A model generated the notes under the pieces. That model searched no databases, had not been told where the DNA came from, and saw only the letters and a list, made by a program, of their open reading frames with translations. This document shows, piece after piece, positions 501 to 25,915 of a stretch of 64,000 bases of DNA. The stretch comes from a virus (Duplodnaviria > Caudoviricetes): positions 8,554 to 72,553 of IMG/VR virus record IMGVR_UViG_3300033072_000728; one strand, given 5' to 3'. Position 1 is the first letter of the stretch. Each line of letters opens with the position of its first letter. Position numbers and translations under genes: made by a program.

Positions 501-507
501 AATAAAA

Positions 508-933
508 TTAGGGTTGGTGAATCCATGAAACTGATAGGTCTGGGAATTTGCATTTTGCGACAAACAATAATGCATCTAAATCAGGAGTTGCAACACAGTG
601 TGTGTTATTTGCCATATTATAATGATATTCAAACCCTTGGACAAACTGCTGTAATTCATCTGATTTTTTGTAGGTGATGCCCCACCCGTTGTTAGTTTCA
701 ATAATGCCAACCCGACATGACGGCATTATTTGAACCTCACTATTATCAAGATAGGCATTCATGGTTGATATTAACAACGGCAACAATTCCGATTTTGGTG
801 TCCAATATATCACATTTGATTCTGATAGTTGTTGTAATGGTGAAAATGCACAAGCAATATCGTTGCTGAAATATAACAACAGCTCTCGTAATTGTTCGTA
901 TTGATCTAGTGAGTTAAATGTAAGTTTAATCAT
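508..933 (-). CDS. array-1 protein (C-terminal LFVAKCKFPDL)
   Basis: Likely start MIKLTF at 933 overlaps the upstream stop by 8 nt (ATGATTAA). Confidence 0.75.
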   Translation of the reverse strand: MIKLTFNSLDQYEQLRELLLYFSNDIACAFSPLQQLSESNVIYWTPKSELLPLLISTMNAYLDNSEVQIMPSCRVGIIETNNGWGITYKKSDELQQFVQGFEYHYNMANNTHCVATPDLDALLFVAKCKFPDLSVSWIHQP

Positions 934-1366
934 AATGATGGAATTCAATCATTTCCAAATCTGGGTTTTGACATTTTAACCAAAAAGATACATCAGGTGG
1001 AAGCAATAAGGCAGCATGTAAGTCAGAAACCCACCTTAAAATGTAAACAGTCGAACCAATCATTCCTTCAAACAATTTGATGATTTGGTTAATATCAGTG
1101 TGTTTGATGGTAGTATAGGTTCCAACATACGGAACAAATTCGACATGCTCAAAAACAGCAGGATCAATGGTGCTGATATATTCATCAAAATTTGATTGTG
1201 ATTCACAAACCAATCTTGCTGGGCATTTATAGTTTGGAATGGTTCTAACAACACTGCTATAGAAGTTTATTCCATTCAAACTATATTCTAATAATTTACC
1301 TTCGCATAATTCTTCACCATAATAAGTTTTTGGTTTGACAATGAATAGTTTCTTTGGGTTAGTCAT
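926..1366 (-). CDS. array-1 protein (C-terminal FWLKCQNPDL)
   Basis: 146 aa ORF; 8-nt ATGACTAA overlap with upstream gene. Confidence 0.75.
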   Translation of the reverse strand: MTNPKKLFIVKPKTYYGEELCEGKLLEYSLNGINFYSSVVRTIPNYKCPARLVCESQSNFDEYISTIDPAVFEHVEFVPYVGTYTTIKHTDINQIIKLFEGMIGSTVYILRWVSDLHAALLLPPDVSFWLKCQNPDLEMIEFHHYD

Positions 1367-1562
1367 ACTCTATTGTGATAGGTGGGAATTTGCATTGAAG
1401 CAAGAATAGGTTGACATCATTGGTAAAATTGACAGTAAAACAAACCCAGTTTCTGGCTAACCATGTAACATCAAATTGTGGAATGGTATTCTCGGTTAAC
1501 GATGTTTCAAAATCGTTTGGGTGAATTTCATTGGTGGGAACATGACAATAAACTAAAGTCAT
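1359..1562 (-). CDS. array-1 protein (C-terminal FLLQCKFP)
   Basis: 67 aa ORF with family motif. Confidence 0.75.
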   Translation of the reverse strand: MTLVYCHVPTNEIHPNDFETSLTENTIPQFDVTWLARNWVCFTVNFTNDVNLFLLQCKFPPITIEYD

Positions 1563-1565
1563 AAT

Positions 1566-1880
1566 TCAATAAACCCTTGTAATATCTGGATATTTGCATT
1601 GAAGAAGAAACCATTCTGTTTCATGTTCAATCCAAAAAAGTTTCAGATCAGAGTCTTCTAATAATCCCACAAAATTTATACCATACGTGGAGGGATCAAT
1701 CACCCAAAAATTTAGTTTCATATCATCGAATAACCAAACTAAAACATCTTGATCTTTTTTACTGGTACAAACTATTCCTATTGATTTTTGAAATTTTACT
1801 AATACTCCGTTTCCTTTCCAATAATTTTGGTAATATAAAAGTTGGGAGCATGTGTTAATATCATCTGATACAATGATCAT
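1566..1880 (-). CDS. array-1 protein (EWFLLQCKYPDITRVY)
   Basis: ORF 1566..1934; likely start MIIVS at 1880. Confidence 0.8.
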   Translation of the reverse strand: MIIVSDDINTCSQLLYYQNYWKGNGVLVKFQKSIGIVCTSKKDQDVLVWLFDDMKLNFWVIDPSTYGINFVGLLEDSDLKLFWIEHETEWFLLQCKYPDITRVY

Positions 1881-1885
1881 AGTGA

Positions 1886-2257
1886 TTAATATACCCTTAT
1901 AATATCTGGATATTTGCATTGAAGAAGAAACCATTGTGATTCATCGTCGGTTGATATAATTGCATCATTCTCGCTTGTTATCATGTGTACTGTCACTTCA
2001 GGCGTAAAAACCGAATCATATCCATATATAACTGCGATGAATTTTGATTCTATAGATGTGAGTTTTATTGTGTCATGAGCAGCAACATTCGCCCTTCCGT
2101 CGCATTTCATATCATCTTTCAATTCCCGCTCGGTCGAATAAAGGAATTCATGGTAGGTATCACCATCTAATGTTTTCCGCCAATATCTAAAGTTTGATCT
2201 AAATTTCATTTGGTAAGAAGGGGAATTTTCCCATCCAGTATACTCAAACACAAGCAT
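1886..2257 (-). CDS. array-1 protein (QWFLLQCKYPDIIRVY)
   Basis: 123 aa ORF. Confidence 0.8.
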   Translation of the reverse strand: MLVFEYTGWENSPSYQMKFRSNFRYWRKTLDGDTYHEFLYSTERELKDDMKCDGRANVAAHDTIKLTSIESKFIAVIYGYDSVFTPEVTVHMITSENDAIISTDDESQWFLLQCKYPDIIRVY

Positions 2258-2261
2258 ACCC

Positions 2262-2690
2262 TCAGTAAACCCTCACAATATCTGGATATTTGCATTGGAG
2301 TAGGAACCATTCGGTTTCGTCGCATTCATTAATGAAGTTTTGCCCATCATTCCATTTAACCATTGAATTTACTTGATCATCTGGGATGTCGTCCAGTAAT
2401 GCATAACACTTCTCTAATGGATCAATGTATTCCATTTCCCATTTAATTCCATACGCCACATAATCACTTGTAAATTTTATAAATCCATCTTGGCATTTCT
2501 TATATTCATTCGGGGAATAATTCCCAAATATGGCAACCCCATCATTGCGTTTGACGAAACATTTAAAGATAGGTTTGTGAATTTTTGAACGATCTACTAG
2601 AAATGGCGAAAATAAAAGGTAATTTCCGATAAGATCATTAAAATAAAAATCATCATACGTTATTGATGGATCATAATGAAGTAGTAACAT
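2262..2690 (-). CDS. array-1 protein (EWFLLQCKYPDIVRVY)
   Basis: 142 aa ORF. Confidence 0.8.
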   Translation of the reverse strand: MLLLHYDPSITYDDFYFNDLIGNYLLFSPFLVDRSKIHKPIFKCFVKRNDGVAIFGNYSPNEYKKCQDGFIKFTSDYVAYGIKWEMEYIDPLEKCYALLDDIPDDQVNSMVKWNDGQNFINECDETEWFLLQCKYPDIVRVY

Positions 2691-2693
2691 AGT

Positions 2694-3086
2694 TTAATAA
2701 ATCCTTACAATATCTGGATACTTGCATTGGAGTAGGAACCATTCTTCTTTGGAATCGGCGTGGACAATCTGAAATCCTTCATCCAGTAAAAATGCTGTGT
2801 TATGTGATGGTTCTGGGATCTTTACTAAACCAACAAGTTTAAACAAATTCAAGTCAGTTTGAATAGCATCACTTTTTGAGTATGGCGTTAATGATATGTA
2901 CAAATCAGTGACATAATCCTTGATAATTTGGCTAGCGTTGGTTGAATAAACAACAACGTTCAGTGAGTCTCGTATTGATGCCCAGTTAAGACTTTTATGG
3001 TTCATACTGCCCCAAACACACCGCAACGTGGAACTCGGTGCATCACACCCGTACCAATCATATTCAGTTAAGTTAACGAGAATCAT
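2694..3086 (-). CDS. array-1 protein (EWFLLQCKYPDIVRIY)
   Basis: 130 aa ORF. Confidence 0.8.
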   Translation of the reverse strand: MILVNLTEYDWYGCDAPSSTLRCVWGSMNHKSLNWASIRDSLNVVVYSTNASQIIKDYVTDLYISLTPYSKSDAIQTDLNLFKLVGLVKIPEPSHNTAFLLDEGFQIVHADSKEEWFLLQCKYPDIVRIY

Positions 3087-3090
3087 GTTT

Positions 3091-3456
3091 CTAATATACC
3101 CTTACAATATCTGGATATTTGCATTGAAGTAGAAACCATTCTGAATCTGATTCTGCAAATACTAATTCAGGTTTTCCAGTTTTACGAATTAAGCCCTTCC
3201 ATTCGGTTCCAACATCAGCAATGCTGAACTGGGGAGGGCAATAATCGTTACATTTAATCAAATAATCGATCAATGATTGTTGTTTTTGGTCTTTTATTTC
3301 AGATGATGTGAATGCGATTAAATTTCCATAGTAAGTTGAATAGAATGGAATAATCACGTTTTCTGGCATATCATGAATATCGGAAAACCATCTACATCGC
3401 GTAGTAATCCAGTTGTAGTTGTATGGTATCAAATCTGAAGGGTACACGGAAATCAT
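3091..3456 (-). CDS. array-1 protein (EWFLLQCKYPDIVRVY)
   Basis: Likely start MISVY at 3456 (ATGA overlap with exonuclease stop). Confidence 0.8.
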   Translation of the reverse strand: MISVYPSDLIPYNYNWITTRCRWFSDIHDMPENVIIPFYSTYYGNLIAFTSSEIKDQKQQSLIDYLIKCNDYCPPQFSIADVGTEWKGLIRKTGKPELVFAESDSEWFLLQCKYPDIVRVY

Positions 3457-14464: not shown

Positions 14465-14626
14465 TTAATGGTTAGCTATTGTGTTAGATTTTGTTTGTTC
14501 AAGATCATATTCTGAGCAAATACCGTTCCATCCACGTTTTCCAACATACAGACTGTTAGTGTTCCAGACACACCATTCAATAAACACAGTCTGAACTAAT
14601 AGACATTTGAATAAAGGTTTAATCAC
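14465..14626 (-). CDS. array-2 (MIKP) cassette, GTG start
   Basis: GTGATTAAACC start; 8-nt overlap with the 14619 stop. Confidence 0.6.
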   Translation of the reverse strand: MIKPLFKCLLVQTVFIEWCVWNTNSLYVGKRGWNGICSEYDLEQTKSNTIANH

Positions 14627-15017
14627 ATGGATATTCCCGTCGAACACATCGGAACAACATTTCCGAAGTAAATGCTTCATAATGTTCCCAAGATGGCGGA
14701 ATTATAACAAACTGAAAGAATTGGTGTTTCGACAGGTCTACTTCATAAATGAAAGCATGATGTTTGATGGTGTTTACCAAATAAACATCAGACAAGAAAT
14801 GATCTTGATTGGATTCATCGTATGGGCAATACCAAACGAACTTGTCGTTACCCTTATCATATTGCTGGATGACTTGAACCCCTTTGAAAAATTGTCCGAA
14901 TCTCTGAAGTCGGAATTCTAAATCAATCTTGCCTTTAATTTGTTGCTTACGTCTATTGAATGGCTTGTTAATAAGTTCATCCATTATAAACTGTGGTGCG
15001 TTATAATATTGTTTCAT
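14619..15017 (-). CDS. hypothetical protein, paralogue of 14064
   Basis: C-terminal PPSWEHYEAFTSEMLFR. Confidence 0.75.
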   Translation of the reverse strand: MKQYYNAPQFIMDELINKPFNRRKQQIKGKIDLEFRLQRFGQFFKGVQVIQQYDKGNDKFVWYCPYDESNQDHFLSDVYLVNTIKHHAFIYEVDLSKHQFFQFVIIPPSWEHYEAFTSEMLFRCVRREYPCD

Positions 15018-15152
15018 TTATAAGCCATTCATCTAGTTTCATTTCCCTCATTTACTGAAAAGTTTCAACATATTCCCATTCAGCATAATAAAGATACGTC
15101 ACACCGAGGTGAACAACCGATTTCATTAAAGTTAATATTGGGTTTAATCATA

Positions 15153-15317
15153 CTATTTGGTCGTGTAACCAATTCCTAAAAGTGCAAAATCAATGCATTT
15201 AGATGATGTGGAATAATAGATCAGACAGGTTCGCCATCCTTCTATTTTTCTAAATGCACTCATATCGCGTTCATTTGCATTTTCAAGTCGAATGTTATTC
15301 AAGTGTGGTTTAATCAT
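15153..15317 (-). CDS. array-2 cassette (54 aa)
   Basis: Hand translation MIKPHLNNIRLE... Confidence 0.6.
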   Translation of the reverse strand: MIKPHLNNIRLENANERDMSAFRKIEGWRTCLIYYSTSSKCIDFALLGIGYTTK

Positions 15318-15318
15318 T

Positions 15319-15492
15319 TTATCCCCCTATTTCATCTCCAAGCATTTCAGATAACCATAGTTGTGATAAATCAAATCTGATTCTCACATCACTAAACAAC
15401 AAACACGAAAATCCACCGATGGTTCTAAATTGAACGTGTTCGTGATCCACGAGATTAGTATGCTCAATAAATCGAAGTTTTTCCTTAATCAT
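15319..15492 (-). CDS. array-2 cassette (57 aa)
   Basis: MIKEKLRF...QLWLSEML. Confidence 0.6.
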   Translation of the reverse strand: MIKEKLRFIEHTNLVDHEHVQFRTIGGFSCLLFSDVRIRFDLSQLWLSEMLGDEIGG

Positions 15493-15622
15493 GTGGCTTT
15501 CCTATTTCATCCATTAACCAAATTGAAATAACCGTGTTGTAAACAATATCAAAAGGATGAAACCATACATCAGTATGACCGAATCCACAAAGCTGAATGT
15601 GAGTTATTATAGGTTTAATCAT
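15485..15622 (-). CDS. array-2 cassette (45 aa)
   Basis: MIKPIITHI...ISIWLMDEIGKPHD*; 8-nt overlap. Confidence 0.6.
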   Translation of the reverse strand: MIKPIITHIQLCGFGHTDVWFHPFDIVYNTVISIWLMDEIGKPHD

Positions 15623-15797
15623 TTGTTAATATAACTTCCAACCATTTTTCAATCTCTAGTAGTTCAATATCATGAACACTTTCCACGAAAAGCAGCCATG
15701 TTGAATCAAAAGCAATAAATCCACGCTTATTCCACCATTCAATATCAAAATCATCAGTCGATTCGACGTAGAACAGCTTAATTACAGGTTTAATCAT
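15615..15797 (-). CDS. array-2 cassette (60 aa)
   Basis: MIKPVIKLFYV...IEKWLEVILTND*. Confidence 0.7.
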   Translation of the reverse strand: MIKPVIKLFYVESTDDFDIEWWNKRGFIAFDSTWLLFVESVHDIELLEIEKWLEVILTND

Positions 15798-16019
15798 TTC
15801 ACTTGATCTTTCAACCATTTTGTCGAATTATCGTCAAGATCAGTTCGATATAACCTGGCAAGTGAAATATATTCCCAGGGAGGAGTTTTGTGCCATTTCT
15901 TATCCCGACCCACAAAATAATAAGTGTATTTTCTGTCATTCCTGGAAATTTGAATTTGGTCAAAACCAGAAAGATTACACATTACACATATCGATATATC
16001 TGATAACGGGTTTAATCAC
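15794..16019 (-). pseudogene. array-2 cassette frameshifted by a 7-bp tandem duplication
   Basis: ATTACAC twice at 15974-15987; removing one copy restores a 73-codon frame from the GTG at 16019. Confidence 0.75.
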
Positions 16020-16840
16020 AATCCAAGTTCCTCAAAGGTTTGTTTAATTTCAGCCACACGCTCTGGATACCGTTTGAATATCACTTGCCATTGGACGGGT
16101 TGAATAACATCAATCAAAGTGTCAACCAAATCATCATTCAATTGATACAGAAATGTTTGACCCATATTGCTCTGATACAACAACCAAGGTGAGATTCTAC
16201 CGTTTCTGATATTCATGCAAATTCTATTAGGACTGACATTTGAAAGAACTTGATCCAGTGGTTGCTTGTACTCTGTCCCAAGTGAATCCAAAGTTTCAAT
16301 ACTTCGATGAATGGCATCAAATGGGTCTTCTTTCTTTAGAAACTCTGTTAAAAACTTTTGGTAGTTTTCATCCAATGACCAATCACCGATTTTCACTTTG
16401 TTGTCAAGTAACCATTCCATATACATCATAGTGTTAATTACTGAAGTATTGATACAGTAGTTTGCAAACTTGACAAAAGCTAGAAACGAACTTGTGCCCA
16501 TAAAATCTTTATAAGTGGTTTTTGTATTACTTGGCCAATGTAGTTTCATAAATTGTTGCCACGCCATAAAGGCTGTTCGGTATTCTAACTTATCACGATC
16601 CATCCATCGTTGTTTTTTCACACACAAATGATTCATCCATGTGGTTTCGCGCTTAAACGACATCCCACAATGTTCGCACTTGAATTCAACTTCTGGTTCA
16701 GAAACGATAGGGCTAGGAGCCTCTAGAACGGCCTTGGTTCGTTTTTTTCTGGGTGGCGTAGGTGTAGCATCATCCTTTAGATTTTTTGGCTCCTTTGGTG
16801 GCCTTCCGCGCTTTGGTTTGATCTGGGACTGTGATTCCAT
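16016..16840 (-). CDS. AT-hook- and C2H2-zinc-finger-containing protein
   Basis: KRGRPPK; FKCEHCGMSFKRETTWMNHLC. Confidence 0.75.
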   Translation of the reverse strand: MESQSQIKPKRGRPPKEPKNLKDDATPTPPRKKRTKAVLEAPSPIVSEPEVEFKCEHCGMSFKRETTWMNHLCVKKQRWMDRDKLEYRTAFMAWQQFMKLHWPSNTKTTYKDFMGTSSFLAFVKFANYCINTSVINTMMYMEWLLDNKVKIGDWSLDENYQKFLTEFLKKEDPFDAIHRSIETLDSLGTEYKQPLDQVLSNVSPNRICMNIRNGRISPWLLYQSNMGQTFLYQLNDDLVDTLIDVIQPVQWQVIFKRYPERVAEIKQTFEELGL

Positions 16841-17402
16841 GTGCTTCCTTCAATTGCTCAAGTTGTTCAGTGGTTAGAATTTTTGACATGGCTTTAATGT
16901 CACTTAACTTCATTGTATCAAACATTAATGCTAAATCACATTGGTTATTTTGAGCCTTAACATACTGTTCAACATCATTGGTAAAATCTGGCACTTTTTT
17001 TGCATACTCGGTTGCTTCTTTGTTAGAGATTTTTTCATCCATTTGGATGAACTTTTTACTAAGTTGTGGCAACCATTTGTGGTTGTATTTCTGTGAAGTG
17101 CCAGTTCCAGATGCACACATGAGCTGCCAAGTTAATTCAGGATGGTCTTTAAGTTGTTCATCAAACAGATATTTGTTTGCATAGTGGTTGGTTGCAATCA
17201 CCGCATATTCTGTTAAATGTGGTTTTTTCGGTGAATTGATTGACGCCATCCACTGAGCAAACATGAATGGGACAAACTTCTTTTGTTCTTCTGGGGTGAA
17301 TTGATTTAAAAAATCATATTGTTTGGTATCTGCTGCATTCAATGCTTCAAATAAATCAAAAGATTTTTCGTTGGTAGTTTCGTCAGTTTGGGTGGTTGTC
17401 AT
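16770..17402 (-). CDS. putative clamp-loader small subunit (T4 gp62-like)
   Basis: DLFEALNAAD...FVPFMFAQW...DHPELTWQL resembles my recollection of gp62-like proteins; likely start 17402. Confidence 0.5.
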   Translation of the reverse strand: MTTTQTDETTNEKSFDLFEALNAADTKQYDFLNQFTPEEQKKFVPFMFAQWMASINSPKKPHLTEYAVIATNHYANKYLFDEQLKDHPELTWQLMCASGTGTSQKYNHKWLPQLSKKFIQMDEKISNKEATEYAKKVPDFTNDVEQYVKAQNNQCDLALMFDTMKLSDIKAMSKILTTEQLEQLKEAHGITVPDQTKARKATKGAKKSKG

Positions 17403-17509
17403 GCTGATAATTTTGATATTGAGTAGGATAAGAATTCTGACATAAATGGATGTCGCGTGCAATAACCTTGATGGTTTATCTTGATACTAGTGATCTTGGA
17501 TTTAATCAT
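17399..17509 (-). CDS. array-2 cassette (36 aa)
   Basis: MIKSKITSI...; ATGA overlap with the gp62-like start. Confidence 0.5.
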   Translation of the reverse strand: MIKSKITSIKINHQGYCTRHPFMSEFLSYSISKLSA

Positions 17510-17655
17510 GAAATTTGGTTTTCAATACCATTGAGAAGTTGCTGTTTAAACACATCATATCTGATCGTTTTGGCATAAAAACTCAGCCGACCCAATGACA
17601 GTGATGTACCGTTTTCATATAGTAATTTTACTAGAACTATTTTAGGTTTAACCAC
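17506..17655 (-). CDS. array-2 cassette (49 aa, GTG start)
   Basis: VVKPKIVLVK...; overlaps at both ends. Confidence 0.55.
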   Translation of the reverse strand: MVKPKIVLVKLLYENGTSLSLGRLSFYAKTIRYDVFKQQLLNGIENQIS

Positions 17656-17776
17656 TAATTTCTTTCTTTATCAGAGATAGATAAGTTTCTGGAATCTCAG
17701 TATTAAGATGTCGATGCGAAATAATCCATTTGTGTTTACTCCCAAACATAACAAATTTAATAAGCGGTTTAATCAT
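17648..17776 (-). CDS. array-2 cassette (42 aa)
   Basis: MIKPLIKFVMF... Confidence 0.55.
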   Translation of the reverse strand: MIKPLIKFVMFGSKHKWIISHRHLNTEIPETYLSLIKKEISG

Positions 17777-17997
17777 GACAATAAGTTTTCCAATTGTTGT
17801 CCAAACACGGGTGAAAATAAAAGAACGCAGACCCAGGGGTTCCATTAACGATGAAATTCAATCTGTCAATATTGGATTTGGTCATCGAGTAGCTTTGTCA
17901 ATAATCTTGTTGTATAGGTGCTGCCATAAGGGTCAAATAACCTTCGCAAATTTCTACATTCTGAAACAGTTATAAACTCAATTGTAGGTTTAATCAT
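17773..17997 (-). pseudogene. array-2 cassette with in-frame TGA (17866-68) and TAA (17845-47)
   Basis: 75-codon frame ending exactly at the next ATGA junction. Confidence 0.7.
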
Positions 17998-18017
17998 TAT
18001 GAGAACCATAGAAATAC

Positions 18018-18059
18018 AAATAGCCACACCCTAACAAAAATTAAAGGGTGTGGCTATTT
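18018..18059. terminator. intrinsic terminator
   Basis: AAATAGCCACACCCT / AGGGTGTGGCTATTT, 15-bp stem. Confidence 0.9.
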
Positions 18060-18076
18060 TTGGTTATTACATCAGA

Positions 18077-18394
18077 TTAACCTTCGGAAGATGTTTGTTC
18101 AGGTTTGGGCATACGTTCTTTGATTTCAGTTAGTAGTTCGTCAACGGTGTCATAAACTTTGAATCCACCTGAATTAAATGAAATGTGCATAAACTCATCA
18201 GGATCGGCAACATTGACAGGATAAACGTATTCTTGTGTTCCGCCTTCGCATTCAAACACAAGATGTTTGGTTTCGGCATACTTTTCAATCTTGTTTTGAC
18301 ACCAAACCCAACGCTTTACGGGTGTAGGAGCTTGTCCAGACCTAAAAGTTAGATCGGTAGTTTGTGGGAATTCAGTGATGTTTACAGAAGTCAT
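18077..18394 (-). CDS. hypothetical protein
   Basis: 105 aa ORF. Confidence 0.75.
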   Translation of the reverse strand: MTSVNITEFPQTTDLTFRSGQAPTPVKRWVWCQNKIEKYAETKHLVFECEGGTQEYVYPVNVADPDEFMHISFNSGGFKVYDTVDELLTEIKERMPKPEQTSSEG

Positions 18395-18431
18395 GTTACG
18401 AAAAAGTGTGTAAGTTGTTGAGAAGGTTTGA

Positions 18432-18680
18432 TTATGCCGTAGTTGTGTTTGTGTGGGTTAATAGTGAAGCAGAATGGTTGGGATTGAATGCCGTGACATC
18501 GGGGATACGGTTGGTTTCGTCGTTTGGGTCTTTTCGGTATCTGATTTCAAGATGATGCTCCCCTGTATCAAGTAACGTCTGAATACCTTTGGAAATATCT
18601 TGAATGTTAGTAATGAAAATATAGTTTGTTGGAATACCTAAACGGTGGATCAAAACTCGTTTAATAATGGATGGTTTCAT
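18432..18680 (-). CDS. array-2-like cassette (MKPSIIK)
   Basis: 82 aa ORF. Confidence 0.65.
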   Translation of the reverse strand: MKPSIIKRVLIHRLGIPTNYIFITNIQDISKGIQTLLDTGEHHLEIRYRKDPNDETNRIPDVTAFNPNHSASLLTHTNTTTA

Positions 18681-18844
18681 GGTAGAGTTGTTTGGTCAAT
18701 ATGGTCTTTCAATTTAAAAATAATGTCAAGGGATTGAACTTGAAGTTCGATTAACAATAGTAATAATTCTGGCGTAACAAGACATCGTTCAAAATTTTCA
18801 ATAGGTTTAGTAACGCGAATGATGGTTACAATCGGTTTAATCAT
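18677..18844 (-). CDS. array-2 cassette (55 aa)
   Basis: MIKPIVTIIRV...; ATGA overlap. Confidence 0.6.
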   Translation of the reverse strand: MIKPIVTIIRVTKPIENFERCLVTPELLLLLIELQVQSLDIIFKLKDHIDQTTLP

Positions 18845-19025
18845 CTTCACTTATTACATAACATAAAATACTTATAACGTTTTCCATTTTGGAATAAGGG
18901 AAAGATTGGGATTTGCTATGAATATACGTCCACAAATAAACATCAATACAGGTTGTCCCATAATATACGTTAAAATCCGATCTAAAGTTTTTGGTTTTAA
19001 ATGATGTTAGTGTAGGTTTATTCAA
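18837..19025 (-). CDS. array-2 cassette (TTG start, xNKPTL)
   Basis: TTGAATAAACC junction variant. Confidence 0.6.
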   Translation of the reverse strand: MNKPTLTSFKTKNFRSDFNVYYGTTCIDVYLWTYIHSKSQSFPYSKMENVISILCYVISEDD

Positions 19026-19260
19026 TTCTATTCTTCCCAAATTGTAATTCAAATATCTTATTTAAATGATAATCCAGTTTATCACGTTCATACGCTGAAA
19101 TAGTTGCTTTATATGAAGTTTTTTGTTCCATTTCGGGTGAAAGTTTTATCGTATTTGACCAACCCATTGCAATTAACGGAATTCCACGATAATGTTGTGT
19201 GGCATGTCTAATTACAAACCCACGTTCACAACTAATTTTACGGATGATGGGTTTATTCAT
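19018..19260 (-). CDS. array-2 cassette (MNKPII)
   Basis: 80 aa ORF. Confidence 0.7.
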   Translation of the reverse strand: MNKPIIRKISCERGFVIRHATQHYRGIPLIAMGWSNTIKLSPEMEQKTSYKATISAYERDKLDYHLNKIFELQFGKNRIE

Positions 19261-19438
19261 TTTGGAGTTGTTTCACTATCTGTTTGTAAGTTTCTTGATT
19301 TATACGGGTTGACAGTTCATTCCAATGTTTCCAATATAAACCGCTAATAAACAATTCAAATGGTAGAGGACATAGTTCAAATTCTAATGAACGTTGGGAA
19401 TTGACAAAATGCGGATATGTTATTTGAGGTTTAATCAT
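19253..19438 (-). CDS. array-2 cassette (MIKPQI)
   Basis: Start reassigned to the junction ATG at 19438. Confidence 0.65.
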   Translation of the reverse strand: MIKPQITYPHFVNSQRSLEFELCPLPFELFISGLYWKHWNELSTRINQETYKQIVKQLQNE

Positions 19439-19661
19439 AAAATTTAGAAATGAAATGTGCTCCAAACATTTTGCGTAAGGAAGAAACGATTCTTGCATCG
19501 TCAGATAATGTAATTTCTTTCCAGAAGAAATTATTATGAAATTCATTGGTTGGTAGTCGGATAGTACATAAAGGAACACCATCGTGGTGATTTGGCGCAT
19601 ACATTACAACTAGGTATTGAAGCGGGTTGTGTAATACCTTTACAATTTTTGGTTTAATCAT
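19431..19661 (-). CDS. array-2 cassette (MIKPKI)
   Basis: 76 aa ORF. Confidence 0.7.
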   Translation of the reverse strand: MIKPKIVKVLHNPLQYLVVMYAPNHHDGVPLCTIRLPTNEFHNNFFWKEITLSDDARIVSSLRKMFGAHFISKFYD

Positions 19662-19775
19662 TGGTTAAAAACTCCATTAAACGGTTCTGCAATCTTTCAG
19701 TAAAAGCTGGAATGCCATACTTGTCTGATTTTGCCAACCAGAATAACGATGTTTTAGAATAAGTGGTTTAATCGT
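19654..19775 (-). pseudogene. decayed array-2 cassette (ACG start, frameshift)
   Basis: ACGATTAAACC start; the family-type end LMEFLTND* lies in another frame. Confidence 0.55.
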
Positions 19776-19936
19776 ATTTGCAAGAATTTTAACACATATT
19801 CTGGGAACGGTTTAGAGCGAGCAACATTTATGATCGGGGGGTTTCACCAGACCACCATGATTTAAATAACGGATTCTAACCCCATCCCAAAATAATTCAA
19901 AATGAGTACAAACTCCAATATCCAGCCACAACATTG

Positions 19937-20047
19937 TTAGTATTTTTGGTTTGACCATGTTCGTAATTTTTCAAAATCTTGAAAGATGATTTCACAAGTA
20001 GCCGATTTCCATTTACACCCGATATAATTTATTTTGGATTTAATCAT
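19937..20047 (-). CDS. array-2 cassette (MIKSKI)
   Basis: Start reassigned to 20047. Confidence 0.55.
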   Translation of the reverse strand: MIKSKINYIGCKWKSATCEIIFQDFEKLRTWSNQKY

Positions 20048-20267
20048 TATTAAATTCCAACTCAAAAAATGGGACACATTCATCGAAATTGTCAAACAAT
20101 TGTTGCCCAACATCTTCAATTCCATTTGTTAAATTTACATAAACTGCAACTTCGTATTTCCAGTTATTAACGTCATCCAATACTTGACTTATAGTTGTTA
20201 TGTAATAAGAAGAATCGGATTTTCTCGATGAAACCGTATTGCACCAATCTATTTTGGGTTTAATCAT
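20040..20267 (-). CDS. array-2 cassette (MIKPKIDW)
   Basis: 75 aa ORF. Confidence 0.7.
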   Translation of the reverse strand: MIKPKIDWCNTVSSRKSDSSYYITTISQVLDDVNNWKYEVAVYVNLTNGIEDVGQQLFDNFDECVPFFELEFNND

Positions 20268-20269
20268 TT

Positions 20270-20434
20270 CTATTTCCTTGAGATTAATTTGTTAAGCCAG
20301 TTTCTGATCTGAGTATTATATCTCTGATTTATGAACCGAACAAAATGAATAGGATATAACACCCGATCATACATATCAGCATCCGAATCTGTTATATCGA
20401 CAAATCTTACAGTTTTAAGTTTGGGTTTAATCAT
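20270..20434 (-). CDS. array-2 cassette (54 aa)
   Basis: MIKPKLK...IRNWLNKL. Confidence 0.65.
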   Translation of the reverse strand: MIKPKLKTVRFVDITDSDADMYDRVLYPIHFVRFINQRYNTQIRNWLNKLISRK

Positions 20435-20574
20435 GATAACTCTTGAATACGTCTTTTAACGCGGTTGGTAAAACTCGATGGATAATACTCATCCCCATTT
20501 GCTGGACTAATTGATCTATCTTTCAGAGATCGACAACACATGACACGAACATCTAGGATTCTAGGTTTAATCAT
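20431..20574 (-). CDS. array-2 cassette (47 aa)
   Basis: MIKPRILDV... Confidence 0.55.
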   Translation of the reverse strand: MIKPRILDVRVMCCRSLKDRSISPANGDEYYPSSFTNRVKRRIQELS

Positions 20575-20734
20575 TTTTCAACAAAACTTCCCAATGGTTT
20601 TTCATCCAATTCAACATCCCAGCATAAACAACAAACTGGGATGCATAATTGCACCTTGGACTTGATGGGGTAGATTGAAAAGTATGTTTTTGGAAACCAT
20701 TAAACACGCCAGTTTTAATCGAATCCTTAATCAT
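20567..20734 (-). CDS. array-2 cassette (55 aa)
   Basis: MIKDSIK...LLKND*. Confidence 0.55.
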   Translation of the reverse strand: MIKDSIKTGVFNGFQKHTFQSTPSSPRCNYASQFVVYAGMLNWMKNHWEVLLKND

Positions 20735-20883
20735 TTAATATCTTTCTCAAAATTTCTCAAATATCGTTCCACCACGTTCAACCATTTTGATTCTTGTTCT
20801 GGGGTTCGATAATAAGAATCATATTCAACTGAATTGTTTTCATCATCGAAACATTTTACCTATTTAAACATAGGTTTTATCAT
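20731..20883 (-). pseudogene. array-2 cassette with TAG at codon 8 (20860-62)
   Basis: MIKPMFK*VKCF...; several relatives have Trp at position 8. Confidence 0.75.
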
Positions 20884-21062
20884 AGTTCATTTAACCAGAT
20901 CGTAATATCGTTAACATGATCCGAATATGATTCAACATTCCACCAGCCAGTGACTGGGTTTGGTACTTCTACCATCAATACACCTCTTTGGTTGAAAATG
21001 CGCCACGGATATAACCCCAGTGGTTCTGAAAAATCTACCCAGTGAATTTTACGTTTAATCAT
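20880..21062 (-). CDS. array-2 cassette (IHWVDF subfamily)
   Basis: 60 aa, ends ITIWLNEL. Confidence 0.75.
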   Translation of the reverse strand: MIKRKIHWVDFSEPLGLYPWRIFNQRGVLMVEVPNPVTGWWNVESYSDHVNDITIWLNEL

Positions 21063-21277
21063 TCTGAATAGTCTTGATCAAAAATTCTACAACCTCGTTA
21101 CAATCAAAAACTGAACCAACTCTGATGGATTGTGAGAAACTATGGTCTTGATTCCATTTTCTAAATGTTAATGTCATATTGTTGAGAAATGTGGTTAAAA
21201 TTATATTCTCCGATCAGTAAACGGACAAACTCATTATCTGGATTTAATGTAAACCAGTTAATTGCGGGGTTAATCAT
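21055..21277 (-). pseudogene. frameshifted array-2 cassette
   Basis: Start MINPAINW and end VEFLIKTIQND* are in different frames; shift near 21210. Confidence 0.6.
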
Positions 21278-21513
21278 GTTACCCCGCCATTCAAACGTGT
21301 TTCTAATTTGCTGTAATAATTATCAAGGGTTTTCATAAGACCACGATGTTTAAATAAACTTATTCCCCTTACCGTATTCTGGTGATATTGATCGACTGCT
21401 TCAAGCATCATTGAACAATGGCGTTTCCCTTTAATATATTCAAACAACTTTCCAAGTTTGAATACAATATCACCATCACAAAAATATACTGCATTGATGT
21501 TGGGTTTAATCAT
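21274..21513 (-). CDS. array-2 cassette
   Basis: 79 aa, MIKPNIN. Confidence 0.7.
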   Translation of the reverse strand: MIKPNINAVYFCDGDIVFKLGKLFEYIKGKRHCSMMLEAVDQYHQNTVRGISLFKHRGLMKTLDNYYSKLETRLNGGVT

Positions 21514-21737
21514 TGTTTTAATCTATTAACTAACCAATACATTAGTTCTGGCTCATATAATTCATATTCGTTGTCATTAACGTTGTTATTCATATATGTC
21601 CGAACAAACATCCGAACGGTGGGTGGCCAAACTAATTCATCAGGATCATATCCCAAAAATATACAAAAATTAAAGTCGTTATTAACAACCGTGCCATTAA
21701 CCCCTACATACACATAAATTAGATTAGTTTTTATCAT
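21510..21737 (-). CDS. array-2 cassette (LIYV subfamily)
   Basis: 75 aa. Confidence 0.7.
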   Translation of the reverse strand: MIKTNLIYVYVGVNGTVVNNDFNFCIFLGYDPDELVWPPTVRMFVRTYMNNNVNDNEYELYEPELMYWLVNRLKQ

Positions 21738-21937
21738 GACACTTTATCAGTTAACCATTGAACCAATTCTGATTCAAAATCGGCATATATTTTCTTTTCG
21801 CGATTTCCGTTATTATTGAATTTCATAATGGTTAGTACGCATGGATAATACTCCATAAAAATTCCAAAATCGAGAACAAAAACGCCTAGTTCATCTAGTT
21901 TGCCCATTTTTACGTAAATTAGTAGTGGTTTAACCAT
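21734..21937 (-). CDS. array-2 cassette (LIYV subfamily)
   Basis: 67 aa, MVKPLLIYV. Confidence 0.7.
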   Translation of the reverse strand: MVKPLLIYVKMGKLDELGVFVLDFGIFMEYYPCVLTIMKFNNNGNREKKIYADFESELVQWLTDKVS

Positions 21938-22125
21938 TCAATAATCCTTTGTTTTTCACGTTCATAAGCATAGGTCAGCCACCTTGAACTATGCCCTAAT
22001 TCAACCATTAGTTTGAAATCATATTCCATACCAGATCAAAGGATTTTTATACAAGATGGGAACCTAGTTGGAAACCATAACGGAGAATCAATTAAGTTGA
22101 CTTCACGTAATTTTGGTTTAATCAT
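21919..22125 (-). pseudogene. array-2 cassette with in-frame TGA (22036-38)
   Basis: MIKPKLRE...IKIL*SGMEY...IIEWLNHY*. Confidence 0.75.
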
Positions 22126-22330
22126 AAGTTAGATACTTTCTTAATTCATTACATTCCATCATATCTCCATTGTATTTTCCTTGCTGAATTCCACCTAGTT
22201 CATTGATGACTAGAACTAACCGTACATATCTAAAATGCTTTGTTTGTTTATCATAATGGTGTTGTTTAGATAATTGATAATAAGTTTCTGATTTTCTAAA
22301 GTTTAGAAGTTCGATGATGGGTTTTCTCAT
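22118..22330 (-). CDS. array-2 cassette
   Basis: 70 aa, MRKPII. Confidence 0.7.
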   Translation of the reverse strand: MRKPIIELLNFRKSETYYQLSKQHHYDKQTKHFRYVRLVLVINELGGIQQGKYNGDMMECNELRKYLTYD

Positions 22331-22533
22331 AACTCATTTAACCATTGGTTTATTTCCTGAGTATGATTCTCAAACGGTTCATAAGTCCAATAATCGTTGG
22401 TTGGTGAATTAAACTCCAACAAAAGTTGTTGGTCATCATAATTTAAAAATATCCTGTATGCTAGTAGAGTACATCCTTTCCATATTCGATCTGGCTCTAT
22501 GAAATCCACCCAATGAATCGATGATTTTTTCAT
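22327..22533 (-). CDS. array-2 cassette (IHWVDF subfamily)
   Basis: 68 aa, ends INQWLNEL. Confidence 0.75.
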   Translation of the reverse strand: MKKSSIHWVDFIEPDRIWKGCTLLAYRIFLNYDDQQLLLEFNSPTNDYWTYEPFENHTQEINQWLNEL

Positions 22534-22769
22534 AGTTCATTCAGCCAGTTTTTGACATCAGGTTTATTAAAGAATTGATCTAGTGAATTAAAGTATTCGG
22601 GATCACGGGTATTATCACGATACCAGTGAAATGCACCGCCAGCCCACCACACTTGTTTGTAAGAATCAAACACTAAATCATCATTTTGGATTCTATACCC
22701 CTTTGACAATGAAAACATATTGTCAAAAACCGTGTAGAACTCAACACCGTGGAATAACGGTTTAATCAT
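22530..22769 (-). CDS. array-2 cassette
   Basis: 79 aa, ends VKNWLNEL. Confidence 0.75.
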   Translation of the reverse strand: MIKPLFHGVEFYTVFDNMFSLSKGYRIQNDDLVFDSYKQVWWAGGAFHWYRDNTRDPEYFNSLDQFFNKPDVKNWLNEL

Positions 22770-22993
22770 AGGAGTTCTCGGGAAATAAACTCAAACATAT
22801 TAACTGATTCATTCAATGTTTGATACAACATATGAGTTTCGGTCTGTTCCCCATTCAAAAACCGAACTTCTTTATACGAATCCGAAACCATTTCCCCATT
22901 CACGAACGTGGTTCCTGTATAACCCACACTCAATGATATAAATTCTTCGTCGTTTAGATAGAATAACAGTTGTTCAATGTGTGGTTTAATCAT
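22766..22993 (-). CDS. array-2 cassette
   Basis: 75 aa. Confidence 0.75.
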   Translation of the reverse strand: MIKPHIEQLLFYLNDEEFISLSVGYTGTTFVNGEMVSDSYKEVRFLNGEQTETHMLYQTLNESVNMFEFISRELL

Positions 22994-23211
22994 ATAGATA
23001 ATCCTGTTTTAATATATTGAATAATTTGAAACGTATCATCAATATCAAGTGAATCTATTTGAGATAGTTGATATGTTGCTGTAAAAACTTTTTCAGAGTA
23101 ATGATTCCATTTCATCTTTCTTGGGTTATCCATGAGCTTAAATGACGATGACAAACTTATAGAGGTTTGGGTAGTGTACAACTTAATTCTTCGCAGTTTT
23201 GGTTTAATCAT
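22990..23211 (-). CDS. array-2 cassette
   Basis: 73 aa. Confidence 0.75.
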   Translation of the reverse strand: MIKPKLRRIKLYTTQTSISLSSSFKLMDNPRKMKWNHYSEKVFTATYQLSQIDSLDIDDTFQIIQYIKTGLSI

Positions 23212-23410
23212 TAAGAAACTCCATTATCTGGCTTAACTCTTTCAAATCATTGCATTCAAAAACTTGCCCTTCTGATTTTGCAAAATCCCATACTTTAAGT
23301 ATAAAAATAGGCTCAAGTAACGGGTTATTAAACTGATTTCGGAAGTGTGATAGCTGGTAAAACTCGGTTTCAGTTTTCCATTTTACATATTTGATAACAA
23401 GTTTAATCAT
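23204..23410 (-). CDS. array-2 cassette
   Basis: 68 aa, ends IMEFLND. Confidence 0.75.
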   Translation of the reverse strand: MIKLVIKYVKWKTETEFYQLSHFRNQFNNPLLEPIFILKVWDFAKSEGQVFECNDLKELSQIMEFLND

Positions 23411-23598
23411 ATTTCAGTCAACCATTTGAATAAGAAATTCTCAAAATCTTTATATAATACCGAGCACCATCCACGATCATCAGATAGTTCGACCGAAAAA
23501 TTATAATCCCAAAAAACTCTATAATAGGTGCCCATTATCCCACTACCATCCGTCGTAGTGTCCTTAAAATCTGCAAATTTTATAACGGGTTTAATCAT
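23407..23598 (-). CDS. array-2 cassette
   Basis: 63 aa, ends FKWLTEI. Confidence 0.75.
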   Translation of the reverse strand: MIKPVIKFADFKDTTTDGSGIMGTYYRVFWDYNFSVELSDDRGWCSVLYKDFENFLFKWLTEI

Positions 23599-23770
23599 TA
23601 TTAAGGCTTTTCACGATAGTTTTACGGTGAGAGGAAAGTTCTCGTAGTTTTCAGACGATGCGCTGGATCAATTCTAGGTCAGTGTTAGCAAACAATGTCG
23701 AAGTGTATTGTTCCCATAATTAGTCGAGTTGTTCATTTAATGATTGCAACTCTGCTTTAGATTGGGTCAT
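23591..23770 (-). pseudogene. 60-codon coiled-coil gene heading array 2, with in-frame TAA (23720-22) and TGA (23651-53)
   Basis: MTQSKAELQSLNEQLD*LWEQY...QRIV*KLREL...LNND*; ends at the 8-nt junction. Confidence 0.7.
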
Positions 23771-23807: not shown

Positions 23808-23836
23808 ATTATACGTGACTTCGACTACTTAGTAAA
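23808..23836 (-). promoter_or_regulatory. sigma70-like promoter for array 2
   Basis: TTTACT-17 bp-TATAAT on the minus strand, just downstream of a terminator. Confidence 0.7.
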
Positions 23837-23869
23837 ATAGTCAACTATTTTCAGGTGGTGACAAACGAC

Positions 23870-23911
23870 AAAAATGCCTCTACACTGTTTTTCAAGTGTA
23901 GAGGCATTTTT
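23870..23911. terminator. intrinsic terminator
   Basis: AAAAATGCCTCTACACT / AGTGTAGAGGCATTTTT. Confidence 0.9.
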
Positions 23912-23926
23912 AGTTGTTCAGTTTGA

Positions 23927-24424: not shown

Positions 24425-25840
24425 TCAACTAATCATTGCGTATCGTTCAGAGCCAAGTGTTTGCATCATAACCCCAACAGGTGAGAAGTCAGATGCGCCC
24501 AGAATGGCTTTCATGATAGAAGGTGAGAATCCGCTAACCAGTGCAACGCCAGACTTGCTAAAGCTCACTGGAACACCAACAGAAGCATTCAGGTTCCAGA
24601 AAATAACCTTTGGCACTTTGTAGCCAGCTTGCTCGTATTTTCGTTCAATCATTTGCATTGCAGCGTCATTAGGTTCTTTTGTTGCGACATCAAACTGCAT
24701 ATCACTGAAAATGATAATGTCAGTTGGCATGTCACTTTCTGGCACCTTGCCTGCAATTCCTGTTTCTAAAATTCGTTCAAAGGTTTTTTCAAGATTGGTG
24801 TTCATTCCCCATTCGAGTGATTCAACTTCACGCTTCTTTGTCAGAATTGTTTTCGACTTCAATTTCACTAAACTTGGATTTGCAGAGAACGTGCAAATCA
24901 CGTCCTTAAATGCGCCAACATTCTTATCTGCAATATACAACCCAAGTGCAATACAAACTTCCATACAAGTAACTGAAGTATTATTTCCAGCACTGGTGCT
25001 CATTGAACCTGACACATCACAAACAGGCAAAATACGGCGGTTTTGTTGTTGAGCACTTTCAAGAAAATTAGGTAACGCTTTCCATTGGGCTTCAACTACT
25101 TTGGCATCATTGCCGCGTAATACATCATGCGGAAAGATTGCAGCAGCATTGATCTTTGCATCACCACTGATTAATGCCTCTTTGTATGCACCATAACCTT
25201 CTGGATCATGTTTGTTGAATGCTTTTTGATAGTTCTTTGCTGCAATACTAGGAACATGGTTGTAATTAATTTCAGTCCATTTATTGGCACACATTTTGGT
25301 TTCAACTACATTGGTAGTATTAACCAACAATTTGCGATACTCTTTTGGAGATATTTGCATGAAAATACGAAGTTCAGATGCTTCTTTGCCCTTACGTGGC
25401 ATCCATTTTCCTGCTAATTGGTTTCCTGCTTTTAGTGCATCTTGAATGATTTTGAAAGCATGATGTTTGACTTGTTTGGTTTCAAAAATCAGCAGATCAT
25501 CAAACCGCCCAAATTCAGGCAAGTGTGACAGAAACTTGATGAGTGATTCTGGATTATGTTTTTCAAGTGCTTTGAGACATTGGCGCACAATTTCACGTTC
25601 GCCTGCACCTTGACGAATATCGCGTGCCCATGCAAGTAGTTTCATTGCAATTGCTTGGTCTTCTTTGAACGCTTGAATAAACTTTGCCGAAATATCCTTA
25701 CCACGGGATGCACCAATGGTAAAGAATAGATCAACGTGTGTATCCATACTGGAAACTTGTGTTGGCATTCCATTAGTGGTTTGGGTCAGTGGAATATGAT
25801 TGTTTTGAATGTTGACTTGGGAGATAAAACGATTTGTCAT
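24425..25840 (-). CDS. TROVE/DUF2828-type protein with C-terminal vWA domain
   Basis: ARDIRQGAGER, FGRFDDL, KWMPRK, MIDAS VCDVSGSM, IFSDMQFD, IFWNL, LVSGFS; likely start 25840. Confidence 0.9.
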   Translation of the reverse strand: MTNRFISQVNIQNNHIPLTQTTNGMPTQVSSMDTHVDLFFTIGASRGKDISAKFIQAFKEDQAIAMKLLAWARDIRQGAGEREIVRQCLKALEKHNPESLIKFLSHLPEFGRFDDLLIFETKQVKHHAFKIIQDALKAGNQLAGKWMPRKGKEASELRIFMQISPKEYRKLLVNTTNVVETKMCANKWTEINYNHVPSIAAKNYQKAFNKHDPEGYGAYKEALISGDAKINAAAIFPHDVLRGNDAKVVEAQWKALPNFLESAQQQNRRILPVCDVSGSMSTSAGNNTSVTCMEVCIALGLYIADKNVGAFKDVICTFSANPSLVKLKSKTILTKKREVESLEWGMNTNLEKTFERILETGIAGKVPESDMPTDIIIFSDMQFDVATKEPNDAAMQMIERKYEQAGYKVPKVIFWNLNASVGVPVSFSKSGVALVSGFSPSIMKAILGASDFSPVGVMMQTLGSERYAMIS

Positions 25841-25899
25841 AGTTGAATTGTTTACTTGAGTGTTAGTGGTATGTGCGAGGGGAAAAAAAGAAAAATGGC

Positions 25900-25915
25900 A
25901 TCCCATTTTAATGGG
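25900..25915 (-). terminator. intrinsic terminator after the 383-aa gene
   Basis: TCCCATT/AATGGGA stem followed by a T-rich tract on the minus strand. Confidence 0.6.

Follow-up and report, generated by a model that had tools for sequence, protein, structure and literature searches.

The DNA considered here, referred to as the window, is the whole stretch of 64 kb (64,000 nucleotides, nt) that was analysed from a 72.5-kb viral contig of the Caudoviricetes (IMG/VR record IMGVR_UViG_3300033072_000728). CheckV completeness of the contig is 21%, corresponding to a full genome of ~345 kb. The guanine-plus-cytosine content is ~36%, and nearly all genes lie on the minus strand. Tiling of the minus-strand open reading frames (ORFs) revealed an array of ~38 mini-genes or remnants of mini-genes, arranged head to tail in three blocks, encoding 36-82 amino acids (aa) when intact, and interrupted only by conserved genes of 105, 210, 274 and 132 aa. 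These tandem mini-genes, called cassettes below, share a start word, ATGATTAAACC, which constitutes their first 11 bases (Met-Ile-Lys-Pro, 3 2/3 codons). The subject of this report is this word, which begins one gene and, at most close junctions of the array, also holds the stop codon of the gene before it.

The sequence ATGATTAAACC occurs 18 times, always on the minus strand and always between 15141 and 23598, whereas dinucleotide shuffles give an expectation of 0.11 copies and a maximum of 1. No copy was found on the opposite strand of the whole 72.5-kb contig. All 18 copies provide the ATG of a small minus-strand ORF, and the genes that they begin are 23-79 aa long. Counted at the A of the ATG, seven exact copies were found in the -8 register, that is, with an 8-nt overlap with the upstream gene (23211, 22125, 20574, 19438, 18844, 17776 and 15622), and five in the -4 register (22993, 22769, 21513, 20434 and 15797); three follow a gap of 1-2 nt (20267, 15317 and 15151), and three have no close intact upstream gene (23598, 19661 and 17997). 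None of the non-family genes in or beside the array (274, 210, 105, 127 and 132 aa) begins with the word. The only two internal M-I-K-P sites of the contig, at 44572 and 53407, both belong to a 5444-aa ORF and are written with the isoleucine codons ATA and ATC, not ATT.

The main block (18432-23598, minus strand) was delimited by ORF tiling, by the shared N-terminus and by orthologues in three related loci, L001-L003. It contains 28 cassettes or remnants of 7-82 aa, with starts at 23598, 23410, 23211, 22993, 22769, 22533, 22330, 22125, 22029, 21937, 21737, 21513, 21277 and 21177 in its first half and at 21062, 20883, 20734, 20574, 20434, 20267, 20047, 19958, 19661, 19438, 19260, 19025, 18844 and 18680 in its second half. 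The second block (17399-17997, minus strand), which is separated from the first by the conserved 105-aa gene (18077-18394), comprises five cassettes starting at 17997, 17885, 17776, 17655 (a GTG start) and 17509, joined by junctions of -20, -8, -8 and -4. The third block (14465-15982, minus strand) has cassette starts at 15982, 15797, 15622, 15492, 15317, 15151 and 14626. The first of these starts is atypical, but the protein has the Trp-Leu (WL) tail described below; the gene at 15151 is a stub of 23 aa, and that at 14626 begins MIKPLFKC. The non-family 132-aa gene (14619-15017) lies among the cassettes of this block.

In the curated array, 34 junctions are close, and they comprise 13 overlaps of -4, 13 overlaps of -8, four longer overlaps and four gaps of 1-6 nt; beyond these, there are four gaps of more than 60 nt, each holding cassette remnants. 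The upstream stop thus lies inside the downstream start word in 26 of the 34 close junctions, read as A-TGA in 13 of them (-4) and as AT-GAT-TAA in the other 13 (-8). The word at the -8 junctions is ATGATTAA or one of the variants ATGAATAA, GTGGTTAA and TTGAATAA. The TGA of the -4 register comes automatically because the next gene begins with Met-Ile. An upstream ORF that arrives in frame is offered no stop by the word. An earlier note on this DNA, made from the sequence alone, had claimed that the word ends upstream ORFs in both alternative frames, and the counts bear this out. All seven 4-nt overlap ends that it listed (15794, 20431, 20880, 21510, 22766, 22990 and 23407) are correct, as are six 8-nt overlap ends (15615, 18837, 19431, 20040, 22118 and 23204), and the junctions at 933, 1366 and 4988 in what it called array 1 are genuine -8 overlaps. 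The frame of one further 8-nt overlap, at 23591, does end in ...SLNND* (asterisk, stop), but the upstream ORF is decayed in this genome. The exact 11-mer is present at most of the junctions cited in that note, the exceptions being the variant words ATGATAAAACC at 20883, ATGATTAAACT at 23410 and ATGATTAAATC at 20047. Of the two upstream endings that it described, N-D* was observed and E-D* was not.

Additional -8 junctions have downstream starts at 21062, 20574, 19260, 19025, 17776, 17655 and 15492. The C-termini upstream of -8 junctions are N/Y/H/D-D*, and with variant words also N-E* and S-G*. The rest of the contig outside the array contains many -4 junctions and only five of -8. In prokaryotes at large, the -4 overlap predominates by a wide margin, whereas -8, the shortest possible overlap of its phase, is a distant third and has been reported to be less efficient in reinitiation (PMC10666635). 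The parity of the two registers in the array is as expected if upstream genes enter the word in either shifted frame and terminate at the first stop available there. The 26 overlaps and the four gaps of 1-6 nt fall within the -8 to +6 stop/start window used for such junctions (PMC10666635). Moreover, the same gene start was observed in different states (-4, -8 or none) across phages in 24 of the 36 multi-member homology groups.

The codon usage of the word was analysed by pooling eight related loci (the window, L001-L003 and L011-L014), which contain 156 family-type genes in 59 homology groups. In the long genes of the genome, ATT accounts for 64% of isoleucine codons and AAA for 73% of lysine codons. 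From this bias, the exact word would be expected in 8.9 of 19 MIKP starts, and it was found in 18 (p = 1.2e-5); MIKP conservation plus codon bias, which the earlier note had raised as the explanation contrary to its own, is therefore insufficient. ATT encodes the isoleucine of codon 2 in 47.9 of 51 homology groups (94%, each group being counted once); its share among isoleucine codons is 0.49 in the bodies of these genes (p = 5e-12 for the comparison) and 0.64 in long genes (p = 5e-7). The lysine of codon 3 is AAA in 146 of 156 genes (94%) versus 81% in the bodies, a small excess, and the proline wobble position is free (CCT 48, CCA 30, CCC 29, CCG 4). The only strongly constrained synonymous base of the word is the T of ATT, which makes the TAA of AT-GAT-TAA. 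Since this TAA needs the synonymous T, and the T is held far above codon bias, the -8 register is a maintained feature of the family start. Among 17 orthologue pairs, the word was found changed at 7 of 187 sites and the following 33 nt at 82 of 561 (p = 1e-6), a roughly fourfold difference in conservation. The cassettes are fast-evolving overall, with 214 non-synonymous and 107 synonymous codon changes.

What kind of element is the word? The cassette proteins share the N-terminal pattern M-[IVNRK]-K-[P]-x-[ILVF] (alignments A1, A2 and A3), and their C-terminus is often an aromatic-Leu helix ([WFY]-L; ...W-L-N-E-L* or ...F-L-N-D*). Information content is high at nucleotide positions 0-10 and falls to ~0.1 bit at the wobble positions 11, 14 and 17, while the second-position T of codons 6 and 9, which specifies hydrophobic residues, retains 1.7 and 1.1 bits. 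Free wobbles combined with conserved second positions indicate conservation of the protein type, unlike that of a DNA linker. The word is thus the N-terminus of a paralogous family, and not a stand-alone DNA junction or recombination site. The C-terminal tail appears to be conserved in the same manner: different members write its leucine as TTA, TTG, CTG or CTT, a pattern that favours conservation of the tail at the protein level generally.

A core of at least 11 members is homologous over the full length (pairwise blastp; alignment A3, with YRIF and WL blocks). The core profile matched 10 clusters among 1.84 billion representative proteins, indicating that the family is confined to this phage clade. 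The N-terminal pattern is common to all members up to residue 9, and the members that were not linked to the core sometimes share the tail as well. When 23 unlinked members without their N-terminus were compared with the core profile by HHalign, probabilities were no higher than those of shuffled controls; the comparison was crude (single sequences, global mode), so that this null result is no proof of unrelatedness. The AlphaFold2 core model, that of the protein from cassette 22327-22533, has a mean predicted local distance difference test (pLDDT) score of 81.6 and consists of four beta strands and a C-terminal helix; a Foldseek search with this model found no match in PDB or BFVD at E <= 0.001. 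The model of an unlinked member (19661-19431, from a five-sequence alignment; pLDDT 48) has three strands followed by a helix, an unreliable resemblance to the core model. Searches of Pfam and PHROGs matched no cassette to a family from elsewhere, barring one weak match (E = 7e-4): among ten members compared with PHROGs, only two weak matches were obtained, to phrog_7022 (E = 7e-4) and phrog_34804 (E = 0.07), both of unknown function. As to their role, our guess is that these are fast-evolving accessory, probably early, proteins.

The loci L001-L003 are syntenic with the window and have the same flanking genes, with flanks that are 82-92% identical in DNA. Flanking proteins are 77-83% (127-aa gene), 90-94% (105-aa gene) and 83-94% (210-aa and 274-aa genes) identical, and a Ro-like DUF2828/DUF7788 protein, present in L002 and L003, is 95-96% identical. 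The mini-genes between these flanks form a mosaic, in which each cassette of the window has an orthologue in some relatives only. Blocks of blastn similarity begin at an offset of 0-1 from the ATG or ~14 nt upstream of it, and end 8-24 nt into the next start. Relative to a family start, 37 of the 57 internal block ends fall in the interval -16 to +25, as compared with 9.6 +/- 2.8 for random placement (maximum 20 in 10,000 trials). The cassette at 22327-22533 (minus strand; 68 aa, beginning MKKSSIHW) represents a one-cassette insertion/deletion, being present in the window and L001 and absent from L003 (alignment A4, blastn). It is flanked on both sides by a shared patch of ~25 nt, TGGYTRAATGARYTATGARAAAA (TGGTTAAATGAGTTATGA.AAAA), and the L003 junction is a recombinant of the two junctions that flank it (alignment A4). 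Contigs from four other runs (aquatic, freshwater, groundwater and a wastewater RNA library) join at the gene starts 22769, 20434 (three runs) and 18681; parts of the array that these contigs leave uncovered were not read as absence, and cover by the RNA library was not read as transcription. A tblastn search for cassette bodies that correspond to a different cassette in a shifted reading frame found only decayed orthologous remnants and no overprinted bodies, and no foreign insert was found in the array.

Frameshifted or truncated copies are present in every genome compared. In the window, the cassette at 21919-22125 (minus strand) is decayed by a frameshift into the pieces 22125-22036 (29 aa) and 22029-21919 (36 aa), and its L001 orthologue (2646-2834, 62 aa) is intact. 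The cassette at 21055-21277 (minus strand) is likewise split into 21277-21161 and 21177-21055, with intact 76-aa orthologues in L001 (3316-3546) and L003 (5901-6131). The segment 20735-20883 (minus strand) consists of a 7-aa stub, beginning with the variant word at 20883, and what remains of a lost cassette; in L001, an intact 58-aa gene starts at 3872, and part of L001 4132-4386 also matches this segment. Finally, a decayed leader ORF (23591-23770, minus strand) contains an in-frame TAA (Gln in relatives) and a TGA, and ends inside the first start word of the array. The loci L001, L002 and L003 have an unbroken version of 65-85 aa, which is coiled-coil-like and ends in ...KND* or ...NND* inside the first start word. 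Recoding of the two internal stops was considered and rejected: one is TAA and one TGA, both are true stops of family genes, and no tRNA was found. Judged from these comparisons, the turnover of the array is birth-and-death evolution with apparent exchange at the junctions.

The gene at 21937 illustrates a different change. It starts with ATGGTTAAACC (MVKP), which turns the -4 stop TGA into TGG, so that the upstream ORF reads through in the +1 frame. The read-through (21919-21937) ends in W-L-N-H-Y*, resembling the usual W-L-N-E-L tail of the family.

Signals for transcription were sought by consensus scans. An 18-bp terminator-like hairpin (23912-23869, minus strand) and the highest-ranking promoter-like site in this region, TTTACT-17-TATAAT (23836-23808, minus strand), together likely mark the head of the array transcription unit (23808-23912). 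Another hairpin, of 12 bp with a 14-nt loop (ATAGCCACACCC / GGGTGTGGCTAT) and followed by a T-rich run, was read from the sequence after the 105-aa gene (18011-18057, minus strand), and likely marks the end of the first transcription unit; since the hairpin scanner was limited to loops of 8 nt or less, this hairpin (18057-18020) was not listed by it. Promoter-like sites are no more frequent than by chance (47 versus 47.1 in shuffles), terminator-like sites inside the array show no excess either, and these hairpins are confined to the array ends, at 23912-23869 and 18057-18020. In a wastewater metatranscriptome (run X5), contigs from a related phage extend over several cassettes in a row (21541-22769 and 16522-18496), which is compatible with polycistronic RNA, although DNA carry-over could also yield such contigs.

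Positions -45 to -1 before the family starts carry ~0 bits in a fixed register, in agreement with the remark in the earlier note that there is no consistent Shine-Dalgarno (SD) sequence; the same holds for the whole genome. An SD core of at least 4 nt is found before 21% of family starts, 28% of long ORFs (15 of 53, within 20 nt) and 13% of random positions, while A-rich leaders precede structural genes such as the baseplate wedge gene and the 5444-aa ORF. This paucity of SD sequences hints at a host with SD-independent initiation.

The source of the DNA is a T4-related jumbo phage, and the array sits in a hyperplastic region. The baseplate wedge protein (58450-61830, minus strand; 1126 aa) shares 32-36% identity with its counterparts in Salicola phage SCTP-2, Agrobacterium phage Atu_ph07 and the RaK2 group, all T4-related jumbo phages with genomes of 340-490 kb. 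The 5444-aa ORF mentioned above (42066-58400, minus strand) adjoins the baseplate wedge gene. Directly upstream of the array lies the gene of the Ro-like DUF2828/DUF7788 protein (24425-25906; phrog_850, 'RNA-binding protein', E = 5.6e-143; Pfam and PHROGs). ARAGORN detected no tRNA in the window. A megablast comparison of the array with 50,697 phage records gave zero matches, a search for related loci with the 274-aa protein alone confirmed none, and homologues of the array occur in metagenomic contigs only. In scans of 2.9 million IMG/VR contigs for two copies of the pattern, hits outside the clade were mostly chance pairs; apart from one small unrelated five-gene MIKP mini-array, no other such arrays were found. 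That mini-array belongs to a different jumbo phage (L009, IMGVR_UViG_3300018080_008436, 476 kb) and comprises five paralogues starting MIKP[I/L]TLD (locus positions 266-2446, minus strand), three of which have the exact 11-mer, with some junctions being ATGA overlaps. Five of the six word copies of that genome cluster at 34.4-37.3 kb, and the bodies are unrelated to the family of the window.

On this evidence, the word is proposed to combine three roles for ~38 tandem mini-genes, namely family N-terminus, stop in two registers, and exchange boundary, with coupled translation and crossover at the word as presumed consequences; the probability of this reading is estimated at roughly 0.6. The cassettes abut without spacers and probably form long polycistronic units in an SD-poor genome. 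Termination-reinitiation would be the most economical route of translation for such long SD-free polycistrons, and translation of each downstream gene would then be coupled to that of its upstream neighbour. The common start word and the often similar W-L-N-E-L tail make neighbouring junctions short direct repeats. Unequal or homologous exchange between these repeats could duplicate, delete or swap whole cassettes, and a new upstream partner would still be stopped at the start word in either shifted frame. Crossovers may take place inside the word itself, beyond mere filtering by selection. A more far-reaching version, in which the word is a selected dual-register 'translational joint' for at least 30 mini-genes, expressed from one promoter by termination-reinitiation in an SD-poor phage-host system, and also a homology patch for integrase-free cassette exchange, is possible but held only tentatively. 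If it is true, any family cassette placed behind any other, in either shifted frame, would be correctly terminated and restarted, a coding-sequence analogue of the T4-type shuffling cassettes discussed below, tuned for fast turnover of an arsenal of accessory proteins.

Several observations weigh against the proposed combination of roles. ATT is also kept in 21.5 of the 23 homology groups that were never seen in the -8 state, and the T is therefore unexplained by present stop use. Non-family Met-Ile starts likewise use ATT in 10 of 12 cases, and the T may reflect a preference at codon 2 or in the initiation context. In addition, the loci compared are mutually related, so that the per-group counts are not fully independent. 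As for exchange at the word, random recombination followed by selection for intact genes would leave the same block ends, given that the genes overlap and the word is the sole viable joint. Regarding the family, ~20 members cannot be linked to the core once the first seven residues are removed (blastp, HHalign), so that demonstrable paralogy is limited to the core, and the bodies of the other members may be either diverged or replaced.

Could the start be conserved at the level of RNA? In such an account, AUGAUUAAACC would be an optimal SD-independent initiation region, or the operator of a phage translational repressor that silences the whole family at once, and the stops would be incidental. 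The T4 protein RegA represses at the start regions of early mRNAs. An RNA signal would suit a genome in which an SD core of 4 nt or more precedes only 28% of long ORFs, and would account for the retention of ATT in groups never seen at -8, for its preference at non-family Met-Ile starts and for the nearly invariant AAA of codon 3. Against this account, T is found at +6 in only 19 of 53 non-family long ORFs, and there is no conservation upstream of the ATG. ATA is equally A/U-rich, yet it is avoided at codon 2 while making up ~30% of body isoleucine codons. The RegA family (PF01818) was unmatched in the 72.5-kb fragment, a weak point that is uninformative because the fragment is 21% complete and control genomes were unmatched too. 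An RNA-level signal is considered unlikely. A distinctly unlikely account is that the word is a pure by-product, that is, the MIKP peptide written in preferred codons, with overlaps due to ordinary phage packing and unselected stops. ATT (0.64) and AAA (0.73) are indeed the preferred codons, the proline wobble is free, protein-like conservation reaches codons 6 and 9, many non-family genes of the contig also overlap by ATGA, and TGA is automatic with Met-Ile. Codon preference nevertheless falls well short of the 18 exact words among 19 MIKP starts, of an ATT share of 94% against 49% at the other isoleucine codons of the same genes, and of the roughly fourfold conservation of the word relative to the next 33 nt; ordinary packing does not predict -8 overlaps as frequent as -4 in the array, since they are a minority elsewhere (PMC10666635).

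The earlier note had gone further and described the word as a universal plug-in junction, by which almost any insert becomes a coupled gene, in the service of foreign gene acquisition or de novo gene birth. Several observations favour this reading: ~20 bodies have no detectable similarity to the core or to each other, whole cassettes are replaced, with the breaks located at the word, and the bodies are orphans in view of the 10 clusters matched by the core profile. The word is not stand-alone, however, as its free proline wobble also indicates, and every cassette carries family features past the 11-mer (hydrophobic residues 6 and 9, often the WL tail). The exchanged units are family cassettes rather than arbitrary fragments, since genes of other families in or beside the array lack the word, no foreign insert was found, and no cassette falls into an outside Pfam or PHROG family save for the weak match at E = 7e-4. 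De novo birth is not supported by the tblastn search, in which no frame-shifted bodies appeared. An insert arriving in frame would get no stop from the word, and the array of words is, bar the small unrelated mini-array, confined to this clade in the IMG/VR scans, at variance with the term 'universal'. A plug-in junction open to almost any DNA is thus very improbable, and the reading preferred here remains that of a family N-terminus that also serves as stop and exchange boundary.

How does the array compare with known systems? Overlaps that support termination-reinitiation (TeRe) comprise ATGA at -4, TAATG/TGATG at -1 and ATGNNTGA/TAA at -8 (Huber et al. 2019, PMC6728339; 2023 follow-up, PMC10666635). 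As in TeRe pairs, neighbouring genes of the array share one orientation, 26 of 34 close junctions have the upstream stop within the next start and inside the -8 to +6 window that both papers regard as diagnostic, and no overlap of the two non-zero phases can be shorter than -4 and -8, respectively. Unlike in typical TeRe pairs, a single conserved word provides both registers at ~38 consecutive genes, -8 and -4 overlaps are equally frequent, and synonymous constraint acts on the base needed for the -8 stop; coupling itself is here predicted from sequence, with indirect support from the scarcity of SD cores and from the lack of internal promoter-like sites above background.

Promoter early stem-loop (PeSL) cassettes mediate modular shuffling in the hyperplastic regions of T4-type phages (PMC2839356, PMC4122927). 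The array resembles this system (Arbiol et al. 2010; Comeau et al. 2014) in that it belongs to a T4-related phage and to a hyperplastic region of small non-conserved genes, and in that relatives differ in which whole genes have been inserted, deleted or replaced, the breakpoints coinciding with a short repeated intergene motif. It differs in that the motif is a translation start/stop word within coding sequence and that the cassettes are partly paralogues. Moreover, the junctions overlap and have no intergenic space, and thus hold no composite of promoter and terminator, so that the array is not a PeSL. With birth-and-death tandem families it shares the head-to-tail arrangement, a core of at least 11 paralogues, variable copy number and decayed copies, whereas its bodies are extremely diverged and its first 11 nt are near-identical and double as the stop of the neighbour. 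Integron cassette arrays are likewise long, promoter-poor and variable, with small, mostly orphan cassettes expressed from one end; however, the spacer-less junctions leave no room for an attC-like site, and the array is therefore not an integron. No integrase was seen among the proteins examined, although no search for integrase families was made. Exchange is best explained by junction homology rather than by site-specific recombination. Elsewhere in the window, a second array (1568-3149) has five copies of a 57-nt direct repeat (79-100% identical, at a spacing of 320-432 nt) at the junctions of five consecutive genes. These repeats stand at the 3' tips of genes, as compared with the 5' tips in the main array, so that a conserved junction between dissimilar bodies recurs in this genome.

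Hyperplastic regions hold most of the unexplored genes of large phages, and their fast turnover is only partly understood. Should both coupling and junction-targeted exchange prove true, the PeSL idea would be extended from transcription signals to translation signals, and the array would represent a natural compact design for long SD-free polycistrons that also accounts for the rare -8 overlap matching -4. If they are not confirmed, the array still stands as a well-documented, fast-evolving orphan family with an unusually constrained start. Overall, termination-reinitiation overlaps and PeSL-like modular shuffling are both already known, and the array is a variant combination of the two.

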